A DNA stretch of 53,114 nt, filler included, from Bipalium vagum (GCA_037834085.1; 3 parts of 3 records of this genome joined end to end with filler, not necessarily neighbours in it); one strand, 5' to 3'. Counted from the whole stretch's first letter, positions 44,051 to 50,198 are shown. Numbers and translations are program-made. The notes: generated by a model from the sequence alone, not told the origin.

Positions 44051-47000
44051 TCAATGGAAATTTGATGTTTGAATATGGGGTAAAGCGTCAGTATACAATT
44101 CATCTTCATCACTTACATGGAGCAAAAACGCGTGCTCTGGAAATGCAGAATTAGCTGAAGTGTTTTTCAAACCTAGATTGTACTGGTGATTGATTTTTTG
44201 TGCTTTGCCACATCTGTTCTTCACTGACCAAATAATATTGACACAGCTGATGACAACAGATACCGCAATAAATACTGTAACTAAGGAGACGTAAATAAAG
44301 ATATGATATAAAACAAATAAAAATTTTTTTAACAGTTGTAAACCATAACTAAAAACATCAACTAAATTACCGACGTTGCACTTTAACACGAATCGATTTA
44401 TTTTCTACTTTTGGTAATGCAAGTAAAATTGGCTAACGAGATTTGAAATAATAATTATGAAATGTTAAATACCCATTGATTGGACGAATTACAGCTTTGA
44501 TTATTTTATTTTTTAGTTTCACCTATAACAGTCTCGAAGTGAGTTACGCTAAAATTTAGAAATTGCAATTTATTAAAAATTCTAGTTTTATTGAATAGAA
44601 TAAAATAACAATGAAAGACAAAAGGCAAAATAGCTTATTTTGAATACGAGATTAAGTGAAAATAAAATAAAAGTACAGATAAGATTTAATATTCTATTAC
44701 AAATGCCTAATCTGTGTTCCGATAAGACATTAAAGTGTTAGAGTTTTAACCTGAACAGCTGATATAATATCTTGTTTGAAATGATTTACGTCTTAGTGTG
44801 AAAAACAATCAAAAAAATTTTGAAAATATATTTTAATATATTTTACCTATATTTGTAAACGAAATCTTTATTGATTAATTTTAATTTCGATGAATTTCTT
44901 AAACAATTTTAATTTAAATTTATAATGATATGTTAATCGACAATCAAATTTTTATCATGTTTTTTTTGACTGACTCGGTCAAAAAAGAGACTTGATAGTC
45001 ATTTCGGTAAAAAAACATGATCCTCAATTTTTATTGTGAAATTATAATTTTGTTTGAAATTGTCAATGAAAATAAAGATTTAGCTTTAACTTACTTTCTA
45101 TCCAGAGTTTATGCACACCATGGGAATTTTTCAACATAAAATTAATAAATATTAAAATTAAAATATATAATATTAAATATTGCGAATTTTAATTTGAAAT
45201 CAATATTGTACAATTACATTTTATAATTAAATTAAATCAATAACTTTTAAAATGAAAAAATTGAAAATTTCATAATTTGATGATTTAATTCATTATTTTT
45301 TGATTATGATACCTTTGGCTAAAGAGTGGAAAGTAGAATAATGGAATCAAGAAATAATAAAACGTGAAATTTTGCTTTATATTATCAGAGCAGTATTATT
45401 TTGAGGAATATTAGTTAATAACCGTAAGTAACATGGATTAATGACAAATAATTGAAGATTTTTTGTAACCATATTATGAAAAAAATCCGATATATAATTT
45501 TAAAAAAACTTTCCATAAATTACTAAGGTTGAATCCTAATATCCCTTAGTGTTAGTTTGGGAATCAATAAGTTTGTTTGGTTCAGGGTAATAACAATAAT
45601 TAAATTATTTTAATATTTTTTATAATATTAATAATAAAAAAATTAATGTGTTTTACAGTTGAACCAGATTAATTTTGGGACTAAAAGAAGTTAATGAAAA
45701 ATCCATTAATTTTGTCTTATCATATTAACATCTTTCGATGTTTAATAAACCAAAAAAACAATAAATTTAAATTATTTCAGTTTTCAATATTTTTGTCCTG
45801 TATACATTTTAACTGTCCAATTGTGGTTTCTTATGACAAAATTGGTTAAAATAACACTTGAAAAGTGAATATTACTCTATTAAGAATCAATTCACTATGA
45901 ATTATTTTTTTACAATTAATATACAAGTATTAAAAAAAAAGTATTGTCATGTAAAACATTTATAAGAAATTAGTAACTCAGTTCACCGGTTGAATATTCA
46001 GAATTAGCTGAACTTTTCATTTTTTTTTCTAAAATGACTTTAATATTGAGAATTTTTTTATTTCTTTAATTAAAATACAAATCAATGTTTATTTAACTAT
46101 CAACTGGGGCATAGTTAATGCAGGTTTTTGGTATTCATATTTACAAAGCAAAAAAAAATCAAGAAATATTAACAGAAACATTGTTTTAATATATCATATG
46201 CTCTTTATTTAAATACTAATCATTAAAAATTAATAAACATTATTTATATTTATTAGGCTTGAAAACAAGGAATTTCAAAAGTAGATTTAAGAGTAATTTA
46301 GTTTTACGATTTCAAACTAGGATGTACTACAGCAGAAACAGCTCGAAATATCAACAAAGTTTGGGGAGAGGGAAAAATTTATGAAACCACAGTTCAACGT
46401 TAGTTCAATAAATTTCGAAATGGAAAATTTGACCTAATGATCGTAAAGGTCGTGGTCCTTATGGAGATGTGAATAATTATCAACTGAAGGACATCATCGA
46501 AGCTGATCCCAAAAAATCAACACGCATTAATCATAAAACGGTTTGGCGTCACCTAAAGAAGACAGGAAATGTAAAAAAGGCTTGACAAATTCGTACCACA
46601 TACTCTGAACAAAAATCAATAGAATCGTCGTTATGAGATCTATTGCTCACTTCTTAAACGGAATGAAAGCGACCCATTTCTCGATAGTATCCTGACACGT
46701 GATGAGAAATGGATTCCTTATGGAAACAGAAAGCGTTCTGCTTAATGGTTAGATAAAGACGATCCCCAACAGATTATCATTTTTTAAAACATCTTGAACA
46801 ATGTATGCAGAAGAAACATTTCAAAAACAGGGAGGCTGTTGAGCTTTCATAGACACCAGAACCTCGAATTTCTATGTTACAGGACTAAATAAGCTTGTTT
46901 CCCGTTGGCAACAATGTGTTCAATCAAATGAATGTTATTTTGATGAATAAAGCTTATTTTTGATAGAGTTATAGCATTTTAAAAATAGTACAGAAAAACC

Positions 47001-50000
47001 TGCATTAATTATGCCCAAACCTGATATCTGCATTTAAAATAACAATCAATATTTCATTTTTCTTTTTACAGAAAAGAAAAATATTGTTCAACTTAAAAAA
47101 ACTAACTTTTTTGGAAAAAACCCAAATTTTACATTAAATTAAGATAAATATTCCCTAAATAAATACTATTTCTTTAAGATAAGCTTTAACGGATAAGCTC
47201 AAAACCAAAAACAAAGATTAATCAAGGATACGTGGGTTTCTGTTTTTCTGAAAGATAAACTAAAAGCTTATAAAAATCAATGTCAAGTTCGTGATGGTTA
47301 TAAAATATTTGGTGAAATATTCGATTTAAATAATATAATATATTAAAGATAATTTGGATCTAACATGAATATGAATCTATTGGTTTAAATTCTTTAAATT
47401 TTTAATAGTTTATTTCCTTACATCTTTTAAATGAAATTCAAACAAATTTAGCCAAATCTCCGGAATTCAAAATATCATTGTACATTTAACTTCTGTTTTT
47501 TAAAATTATTAAATTCTTTTATATTTAATACATTAAATTCTATAATACACATTATTATATAACATTTAAAATTAGGTAATTGTAATTAAAGTTTTATTAG
47601 TTATTATTTAAAATATTTATAAAGGCACTATATTATAATATTAGGTGATATAAAGAGTTTCCAGCATTTTTAAAATAAAAACAAACAAATTTTTTCAGAT
47701 AACAAATAAACTTTATTAAATCAAACACATTCCTTTTTGTTTTACAACCTTTCTCGATTTATTGAAAAAAAAACTATGATTCCATCAATGTAAAATTTCG
47801 TAGATTTTTTATTGAAAAACTGAATAATGTAGTCTTTTATTGAAGTTCCACTAAGTAAGTTCTGACCGTTATTTCTGAATCGATTGATCTAACCTTGTTA
47901 TTGCGCACAAATGTTTGTGTCACATCGATGTTGCCAGGGCAAAACTCTATCTGATACAATATTAGCTCAATAGACATCGAACATATTTTTGGCGGTTTGG
48001 TGGCATATTTTCCTTTCAGGAAATACAATTTAAGAATGTACCTAATTTCTTCCTTGTCTTGAATTTTTTGCGACACTTATTTAGTTTATTAAAACAATTT
48101 ATATTAAGAAATTTTATCGAATAATTAAAATTTGGTAATTGATTTTATATCAGAATATAAAATAATATTGGATTTAGAACTTACAGATCGTTTGCAATTC
48201 AACTTAAAACAATCTATGACAAAAATAGCACGAACTTTTTAGGTCACCCAACATAAATGACTTTAAAATAAAAAATTCCCATGGTCTATTACACTCCTTA
48301 TAATCAAGAATAGTGATAGTTTGATAGAAAAGGTATTTCGATACTGTGTTCCATGATCAGATAATTGATTTCGTATTTTACTGTTATGATTGAAAAATCC
48401 AACCAGATATTTTTTGTGCTCCATAAACAATGTCAAGTAACTTATAAAAAAATTAAAATCTCTCACGGAACTTTTGAACCATATGCCAAGTAGTTTACAA
48501 TTTATTTCTGTGGTATCATCGATTTCTATATTTTCAGAACATTTCTAATATTGATCTGTAGCAATAAAAATAAACTGTGAAGATGGTGTTCTTTCAAAAA
48601 TCACATTTTAAAGATCTCGTTATTTTCCTTTTATTGAGAATTTTGAAAGATTTCAATTTGCATTACTAAAGTCAAAGAAATTGTTTAATTTAGTTTAGAT
48701 TTTAAAAAATCAATATACTTTTCCAATCTAATAAAATCTTTTACAGGGCTATTCATTAATATTTATAATTGTATTCAGTAATATGTAAATTGTATTCAAT
48801 AATATATATATATATATATATATAGTTCTATTCATTAATATATACAACCAATTTTTACAAGGAACATAATTGAATTTACATTAAATAGCAATGAAGTAAA
48901 AAAAATATTTTAGAAAATTATTTATTATATAAACATTTATTTTTCGAAAAACTTAAAAACCATATCCCATGATATACTTTATCAAGAAATTATCTCATTT
49001 TTAGTAATTTGACACAATAGTTTCGGATTTCATTGCAATTAAAATATACTCGACAACAGTCATTAATTCATTTGAATTTGGAAATAAAATTATTTTAAAA
49101 AGACCTTTGAAAGAAACACAAGGGTAAGTGTGAAAATATCTTCCTTGAAAACTAATTATATAGTATAATATATAATGATGTGACTTGAATTTTAATGATA
49201 ATGCTAAATTAACAATATTGAAAATTCTGATAAAGCAGAGTGGACAAACCTGGAAAATTCGTAATTATTTATCCAAAATTAAGAAAAATTTCAAACAATC
49301 TTAATTATATTTTAATATTGATTAATCAATTTCAAATTAGTATTAAATTTAGATAAAATATTTTATTTTTTAGATAAATATGTTCCGATTTCTATTAATA
49401 ATAAAATATTATCAATAATAACTTACTGAAGACTGACATGGATATGTCTACATGACTGATTTGTTTTTCGACCAAGAGAGAGGGTAGTGTTACATTAGCA
49501 TCGGTGTACACAATATGGTCACGGAGTTGCAGGATATTATAAATGATAAGATAAATGTCCACGAATTTTAGAGAGAAAACTGATTTTATTTGCTTTTTAA
49601 AATTAGGGCCCACTGCCAAAAATTTTGGATTACTGTTCATTGATATAAGAATAATATTAATGTTATTATGTTGAATAAGACTACTGAAAAGATTTGTGAA
49701 CTTCGTGATGTTTTTCCTTGTATTCAAATTGGTTGACATTATTCCAAGTACAGTATTTTTCTTACTTATCCAACGTATCATTCTTTCTAATAATAGATGT
49801 TTAGATATTACATTCATTTTACAACCAAAGCTGAAAGTAGGCCATGTGTGATTAAATACGGTTTGATTAGGCCAATTGAGAATGGCAGAGTCAAGATGAC
49901 TTTTCTGGACCTTTACCCATATCGGGTCACATTTTGGAGAATTTTTAGAATAACAACCGTTAATAGTAGAATCATACTTACTGGAAATCTTATATGGATC

Positions 50001-50198
50001 TAGCTGAATTGGTAGATGAATATAAGGGTATTTTGATTGAATAACGTTTATAATATCGTTTGGAATATCTTTGGTAAATGATATTAGCAGTAATTTAGTT
50101 GTTGCTTCTTCACCATGACAATTTATGTCTGCAATAAAAACTAATACGGAAAATATCAGGTAATCTATGAAGAGTATTTTCCAGTAACTTATATTCAT
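44051..50198 (-). CDS. ENPP4/5/6/7-like (alkaline phosphatase superfamily) type I membrane protein, apparently catalytically dead, 2 exons, 333 aa
   Basis: Exon 1 is 50198-49427 (donor A|GTAAGT). Exon 2 is 44280-44051 (acceptor CCTTAG). The phase 1 join gives 1002 nt. Signal peptide; ENPP-like blocks KLLLISF, PIWV.....SAILNWP, NIILIS, PKFLAVGPNFKK, VDIY.IIYNILQL; TM helix spanning the junction; tail with FLL..SDEDELY. Confidence 0.72.
46100..47024 (+). mobile_element. Internally deleted mariner element (in the ENPP-like intron)
   Basis: TA-flanked TIRs (..GGGCATA(G/A)TTAATGCAGGTTTTT). Remnants YDFKLG.TTAETARNIN, FVPHTL (WVPHEL-like), ILTRDEKW, KLVSRWQQCV. Confidence 0.92.
47641..48251 (-). 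mobile_element. Short non-autonomous mariner derivative
   Basis: Imperfect TIRs TTAGGTGATATAAAGAGTT / GAACTTTTTAGGTCACCCAA. Mariner N-terminal remnant KEEIRYILKLYFLKGK.A. Confidence 0.75.

Follow-up and report, generated by a model that had tools for sequence, protein, structure and literature searches.

Judged from its sequence, a gene of the flatworm Bipalium vagum (GCA_037834085.1) encodes an ENPP-derived pseudoenzyme, a protein that fails the catalytic definition of an ENPP enzyme. The window, meaning the whole stretch of DNA that was analyzed (53,114 nucleotides), consists of three stretches joined, and the gene lies in the third (36875–53114, 26% GC; contig C120717 of genome G000). In the reading that we favor, with a probability of a little over one half, the product would be a noncatalytic type I membrane protein that cycles among the cell surface, endosomes, and the trans-Golgi network (TGN) by signals in its cytoplasmic tail and binds a protein partner through its luminal core.

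Two Exons Encode One Uninterrupted Frame

A preliminary description of this DNA had assembled a 333-aa protein from two open reading frames (ORFs) 5.1 kb apart. The ORFs do join in phase, across a GT..AG phase-1 intron (49426–44281), into a 333-aa frame with no internal stops, and we infer a refinement of that picture, an ordinary two-exon gene whose intron is spliced in B. vagum:

49427..50198, minus strand: coding part of exon 1 (772 nt), residues 1–257, with the predicted signal peptide and the whole minimized ENPP ectodomain
44281..49426, minus strand: intron (5146 nt, GT..AG, phase 1, 23.9% GC) containing pieces of high-copy repeats
44051..44280, minus strand: coding part of exon 2 (230 nt), with most of the predicted transmembrane (TM) helix, the cytoplasmic tail, and the stop

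Exon 1 ends at a phase-1 donor that agrees with the consensus. No AG occurs in the stretch before the acceptor AG, with 70 nt separating it from the nearest one upstream, and an alternative in-frame AG 6 nt downstream would give a product of 331 aa. ORFs of at least 257 codons arose in 0/200 shuffles of the gene's contig, which places the length of exon 1 beyond chance.

In a HMMER search of 1.84 billion representatives, three proteins and no more passed E ≤ 0.001; all lay below 1e-30 and shared 39–44% identity with exon 1. These proteins (P0080, P0081, and P0082) are singletons without names. P0080 (332 aa, a single ORF on a 1236-nt contig) matches exon 1 with 44% identity (E = 1.1e-45) and exon 2 at 35/72 residues (E = 2e-22); because it carries both parts in one frame, it independently supports the join and the 333-aa product proposed earlier. 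In P0081 and P0082 the match ends near the end of exon 1 and unrelated letters follow, as would be seen in unspliced read-through. A word-index search with exon 1 confirmed 0/338 candidates, and one with a profile of all four sequences recovered the same three proteins only (3/5957), longer or shorter forms lying outside that search. Searches for homologue DNA in metagenome contigs gave 148 pattern matches, none of them confirmed, and in a second search no matches.

No RNA run was listed for the locus, and the one sequencing run that contains it looks like DNA, with unbroken cover of the intron at a depth of ~22–27 and no joint across the intron among the joints listed (15 of 58). A contig from this run (48838–50757) spans exon 1 with no alternative letters, which excludes a misassembled exon 1. 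Searches of genome G000, scoring just the best candidates, found a single copy of the gene, and P0080 searched against the same genome matched exons 1 and 2 alone (2/2 candidates). An ENPP profile run over the six frames of the contig found no ENPP remnant in the intron: exon 1 was the only meaningful match (E = 2.8e-6), alongside one chance-level stretch outside the gene (E = 2.3). Hidden ENPP exons in the intron were rejected on this basis; the deletions described below lie inside one open frame and are common to the homologues. Rfam gave 0 matches on the gene's contig. The intron does hold high-copy short repeats at ~44735–45228 and 47699–48439, where summed contig depth reaches 2750 as against ~24; fold-back joints occur near 44995 within them, and they are perhaps miniature inverted-repeat elements.

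The Ectodomain Is a Reduced ENPP4/5 Domain

Profile comparisons show that the ectodomain descends from ENPP4/5, in keeping with the ENPP ancestry first proposed. Aligned with hhalign, a profile of the four-member family matched an ENPP profile built from 40 sequences (97.3%, E = 2.5e-11), the 227 columns running from the first strand through to the domain's end, and in a search of the PDB with the four-member profile ENPP5 and ENPP4 ranked first (E = 1.3e-7 to 6.3e-5). ENPP clusters also ranked first by the Atlas features of P0080 (0.91); an Atlas search with exon 1 gave only viral matches below 0.9, which we treated as noise. Exon 1 alone matched human ENPP5 with E = 0.062 in two collinear pieces and scored 11.6 bits against Pfam PF01663, below the curated cut-off of 23, while one of the three homologues scored 17 bits and two gave no match. 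Pfam misses the gene, which would pass as a lineage-specific orphan.

The fold is predicted to be the bare alkaline-phosphatase α/β core. An AlphaFold2 model of the ectodomain, built from a 69-row alignment, reached a predicted local distance difference test score (pLDDT) of 87.9 and a predicted template modeling score of 0.88. Structural searches with this model bear out the alkaline-phosphatase fold named in the preliminary description: Foldseek ranked ENPP5 first, and VIA-align ranked ENPP4 first (Z 21.8, root-mean-square deviation 2.8, 209/228 residues on a 379-residue chain), with six ENPPs (Z 21.8–18.2) above sulfatases and phosphatases (16.6 and lower). What the model retains of a phosphodiesterase (PDE) domain with this fold is the core only, and ENPP rows aided the model. 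At ~210 of 380 residues, it would be the smallest predicted ENPP folding core.

ENPP4 and ENPP5 themselves (type I, single-domain, PF01663; PDB 4LR2, 4LQY, 5VEM, 5VEN) share with the protein collinear blocks over the whole domain, the predicted core fold, and a predicted signal peptide, single TM helix, and short tail. They differ from it in scoring above the Pfam cut-off, in lacking three cysteines that are new and invariant in the family, and in retaining the zinc ligands, nucleophile, conserved Asn, and ~180 residues (the cap and three further segments) that are missing here.

Most Catalytic Residues Have Been Excised

ENPPs hold two zincs by seven residues, a Thr or Ser nucleophile among them, according to the excerpted text of PMC8808174. 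In our alignment most of the catalytic residues are deleted rather than mutated. The seven residues and the conserved Asn are each present in 62–65 of 65 ENPP rows and absent from every family member that covers the site, so that proper alignment leaves none of the metal ligands or the nucleophile, whose loss had been claimed from the start. Two positions remain as substituted columns: that of the first Zn2 Asp reads Thr, Glu, and Gly in the three members covering it, and that of the nucleophile, Thr in 65/65 ENPP rows, reads Ile, Arg, Asn, and Lys in the four members. The other six are gapped in the family alignment. The Zn1 ligands (two His and one Asp) all fall inside deletions in 4/4 members, and the Zn2 Asp/His pair, gapped in that alignment, lies opposite Met187/Asn188 in the hhalign comparison. 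The affected sites are as follows:

50073..50075, minus strand: Thr42, at the place of the first Zn2 aspartate by alignment (Glu and Gly in two homologues)
49986..49988, minus strand: Ile71, at the place of the Thr nucleophile by alignment (Arg, Asn, and Lys in the homologues)
49929..49955, minus strand: Cys82–Cys90 loop with a putative disulfide, replacing ~32 residues that include the conserved Asn
49821..49823, minus strand: Cys126, invariant in 4/4, in an alignment column that is Tyr in 74% of ENPP rows
49722..49736, minus strand: approximate junction of a 22-residue deletion that removed the Zn1 Asp and His
49629..49640, minus strand: four-residue turn (187–190) in place of ~110 residues

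The preliminary description had noticed one deletion of roughly 100 or more residues. This deletion is present at ~110 residues and took the Zn2 Asp/His pair, the whole cap subdomain, and the last Zn1 His, and the real loss is larger: relative to an intact ENPP (P0009) there are four deletions of ~12 (net), 32, 22, and 110 residues plus small ones, ~180 in all, with lengths taken from alignment projection and edges uncertain by a few residues.

Two of the new invariant cysteines (82 and 90) stand at the edges of one deletion, and the third, Cys126, leaves an odd number of ectodomain cysteines. The Tyr that predominates in the Cys126 column of ENPPs is likely the base-stacking Tyr, a sequence-level assignment made with the excerpted text of PMC8808174. 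If it is, Cys in 4/4 members at this position would mean that the nucleotide slot has gone too, which argues against a nucleotide decoy. Of the roles listed at the outset (adhesion, receptor, decoy, or trafficking), the nucleotide decoy is accordingly disfavored, and our choice of trafficking with partner binding among the others is a second inference.

Gene structure is consistent with the same deletions. The two introns of intact paralogues near residues 300 and 358 fall within the ~110-residue deletion, which would explain why the ectodomain occupies a single exon. A phase-1 donor-like site lies 22, 28, and 29 codons past a shared landmark in 3/3 intact paralogue exons and ~25 codons past it here, so the remaining intron is probably ancestral.

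The Gene Shows Signs of Selection

Several patterns support the view, advanced in the preliminary description, that the gene is not decaying and is kept by selection. Neutral simulation of exon 1 left 0/300 frames open at 42% identity (mean 10.5 stops) and 0/300 at 65% identity, and 52/202 columns are invariant in the family, whereas 60 neutral runs averaged 15% and peaked at 20%. Cys (3/3) and Trp (4/4) positions are invariant. We found neither the stops and frameshifts nor the neutral divergence that would mark a pseudogene. A decaying pseudogene, or a chance join of two unrelated ORFs, could account for a Pfam score so far under the cut-off, yet we regard either as extremely improbable: besides the neutral runs, the same deletions recur in four sequences with pairwise identities of 38–55%, and P0080 holds both parts in one frame.

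Twenty positions are invariant in the family yet rare in ENPPs, several of them in segments that form the old substrate slot. Some of them (Asn80, Cys82, Cys90, Asn111, Gln112, Trp119, Cys126, and Arg139) could build a new site that needs no metal, making the protein a neo-enzyme or a binder of small molecules. We consider this a long shot, as no metal ligand and no nucleophile remain and conservation of Cys and Trp is expected from structural roles.

Topology and a Conserved Cytoplasmic Tail

Hydropathy and the homologue P0080 point to a single-pass type I membrane architecture, as in ENPP4, 5, and 7. A hydrophobic N-terminal stretch covers residues 3–28, and a second, at ~255–277, is followed by basic residues; Cys27-His28-Gly29 at the putative cleavage site is identical in 3/3 complete N-termini. 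The predicted parts are:

50112..50198, minus strand: predicted signal peptide by hydropathy, residues 1–29, with probable cleavage after Gly29
49443..50111, minus strand: ectodomain, residues 30–252, predicted bare alkaline-phosphatase α/β core
44222..44280, minus strand: exon-2 part of the TM helix predicted by hydropathy, ~residues 255–277, which starts in exon 1
44054..44221, minus strand: cytoplasmic tail, residues 278–333 (56 aa)
44180..44191, minus strand: NxxY motif, residues 288–291, within an eight-residue block identical in P0080
44120..44137, minus strand: [DE]xxxL[LI] dileucine motif, residues 306–311, pattern kept in P0080
44099..44113, minus strand: serine-led acidic cluster, residues 314–318, kept in P0080

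The tail aligns with that of P0080 without gaps and with 31/56 residues identical (55%), as compared with 95/224 in the ectodomain and 4/19 in the TM helix, which stays hydrophobic. The acidic cluster we take to be a CK2-type site by its consensus. The dileucine pattern, a feature of clathrin-adaptor cargo, is present in 2/2 family tails and is not matched on the cytoplasmic side of any of 10 intact ENPP C-termini. Motifs of the form [DE]xxxL[LI] bind AP-1, AP-2, and AP-3, and NPxY directs endocytosis, according to the portion of PMC4584282 consulted. The label "cell-surface" given in the preliminary description goes further than the sequence allows: the tail motifs point at least equally to endosomal/TGN cycling.

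The protein could instead reside at the surface as an adhesion or coat glycoprotein, with the α/β core as a spacer or homophilic domain and the tail motifs serving turnover or polarity only. Such a role, to which we give a small probability, would suit a type I protein whose ectodomain carries N-glycosylation sequons at four sites (111, 116, 163, and 235) and has kept its core while the variable loops were lost; an ungapped tail that keeps three sorting-type motifs at ~57% ectodomain divergence fits active sorting better. A homodimer prediction for the ectodomain, run without an alignment and on an uncertain fold, scored 0.01 and weighs neither for nor against a dimer.

Origin Among ENPP4/5-Type Proteins

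The four members form one clade (ultrafast bootstrap, UFBoot, 100) on a branch of ~2 substitutions per site among animal ENPP4/5-type proteins. In the maximum likelihood tree (39 rows and 179 columns, with an ambiguous N-terminal segment and vertebrate rows left out, and a long branch) the family has a snail ENPP as its neighbor and does not fall within the flatworm NPP5 clade (UFBoot 94). The family profile likewise scores the snail ENPP higher (40.7 bits) than the best flatworm NPP5 sequence (18.6 bits). Although an approximately unbiased test did not reject grouping the family with the flatworm NPP5 clade (P = 0.245), these comparisons suggest an origin from an ENPP4/5 lineage of non-flatworm type. 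The flatworm NPP5 clade (trematode ENPP5-like proteins and the intact paralogues of genome G000) belongs to the same superfamily and likely shares the ancestral intron before the TM exon, but unlike the present gene it keeps all catalytic motifs.

Genome G000 contains at least three ENPP4/5-type genes that are intact and carry the catalytic motifs (best candidates scored). An intact ENPP from it has trematode proteins as its best named relatives and groups with them (UFBoot 100), outside the trematode subclade. Control of an active enzyme by a dead protein has precedents in iRhom/ADAM17 and SUMF2/SUMF1, and the present protein might be a dedicated regulator or escort of the worm's own active ENPPs, or of another ecto-enzyme, binding the live enzyme and governing its folding, surface delivery, or removal. 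The intact genes provide possible clients, the topology is that of active ENPPs, and the odd cysteine could link to a partner. We nevertheless think this role unlikely, because half of the ENPP surface is deleted, the family's long branch marks it as no recent duplicate of the intact paralogues, and the excerpted text of PMC8808174 mentions dimers for ENPP1 and ENPP3 only and does not describe ENPP4–7 as obligate oligomers.

Other PF01663 matches were seen in the same genome. A divergent gene at L009:1372–2084 (C199179), possibly continued in L007 (C198152), has a Pfam E of ~1e-11 and a Cys at the position of the Thr/Ser nucleophile; it could be an ENPP6-like enzyme that uses an uncommon nucleophile, or else another dead ENPP. 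Two long single-ORF matches, L008:87–1598 and L011:679–2172, appear to be a duplication and presumably encode PIGG-type glycosylphosphatidylinositol ethanolamine-phosphate transferases, judging from their motifs.

A Proposed Receptor-Like Function

The ENPP family offers one precedent for a dead domain kept for a structural role, the inactive nuclease-like domain of ENPP1–3 (PMC8808174, excerpted text). That domain has a different, nuclease-like fold and accompanies an active PDE domain, whereas here the PDE domain is dead and is the only domain. Neither this protein nor any dead single-domain ENPP turned up in the portions of the literature available to us, though supplementary planarian gene tables could name it.

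A closer likeness may be the (pro)renin receptor, ATP6AP2 (~350 aa), which associates with the V-ATPase. ATP6AP2 has been termed a pseudo-alkaline phosphatase with an ectodomain that has the fold, lacks the metal ligands, and is proposed to bind proteins (PMC10073018, in the excerpt consulted). Like it, the product would be a single-pass protein of similar size with a minimal alkaline-phosphatase-like α/β ectodomain devoid of metal ligands, as far as the model indicates. ATP6AP2 orthology was considered and rejected, as exon 2 and P0080 gave 0 matches to Renin_r (PF07850) and the genome has a separate Renin_r exon:

L019:1498–1695 (contig C82464 of G000): C-terminal exon of the genome's own ATP6AP2/(pro)renin receptor (PF07850, E = 2e-27)

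A PDB search with a frame near this exon was empty. Since ENPP-specific blocks are kept in the present gene, any resemblance would reflect an independent arrival at the (pro)renin receptor design.

In the cycling reading that we favor, the metal loops and cap would have been cut away and the old active-site face rebuilt around the three cysteines that are new and invariant in the family. Through its dileucine and acidic signals the protein would engage clathrin adaptors, and its NxxY signal would draw in an adaptor for endocytosis or recycling, while the bare phosphatase-fold core would bind a protein partner. By analogy with what is proposed for the (pro)renin receptor, the role might be that of a cargo receptor, escort, or assembly factor. 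A stronger version, which we put forward only tentatively, is that in some flatworm lineage an ENPP was remade as a cycling cargo receptor or assembly factor of the (pro)renin-receptor kind, through removal of precisely the metal-binding loops and the cap and through new disulfides that sealed the substrate slot.

A number of observations weigh against the cycling reading. On the structural side, 65 of the 69 rows behind the confident AlphaFold2 model are intact ENPPs and bias it, and folding from the single sequence is poor (pLDDT 38.5), although strands and helices follow in a comparable order in the central part. The neutral simulation is a basic one, ignoring indels and using the present sequence as a stand-in for the ancestor. 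For the tail, the family sample is two, and short motifs could persist by descent; the excess of tail over ectodomain identity in raw percentages (55% vs. 42%) is modest; and the NxxY lacks the Pro of canonical NPxY. YxxΦ patterns occur in 6/10 intact ENPP C-termini (one on the luminal side of the helix), and P0069, an intact ENPP, has a tail with LL and acidic residues. The tail may thus be inherited without defining a new job.

Pseudoenzymes as such are common, but in this one function went with the catalytic loops that were cut out, point changes playing the lesser part, and the descent can still be read. The gene could serve as a traceable model for the passage from an alkaline-phosphatase-fold enzyme to a receptor-like protein, which is where ATP6AP2 is proposed to have ended up. 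Should the (pro)renin-receptor-like version hold, the pseudo-phosphatase receptor design would have a second origin, independent of the first and still open to tracing, and the gene would encode the first ENPP with a dead domain and no other. In a planarian host, RNA interference and in situ hybridization would make the function directly testable.

Neighboring Genes

Directly downstream of the gene, at 42973–43266 (minus strand), lies a mariner-type transposase fragment (PF01359, E = 1.2e-26), and 5 kb downstream on the same strand, at 38021–39019 (minus strand), a single-ORF PDCD7 homologue (PF16021, E = 2e-33). In the other two stretches of the window lie exons, at 2136–14977 (minus strand) and 21323–24617 (plus strand), that belong to a RabGAP-TBC gene and to one for an oxysterol-binding protein, together with DDE transposase fragments at 16670–17005, 27715–28179, and 29397–29924.

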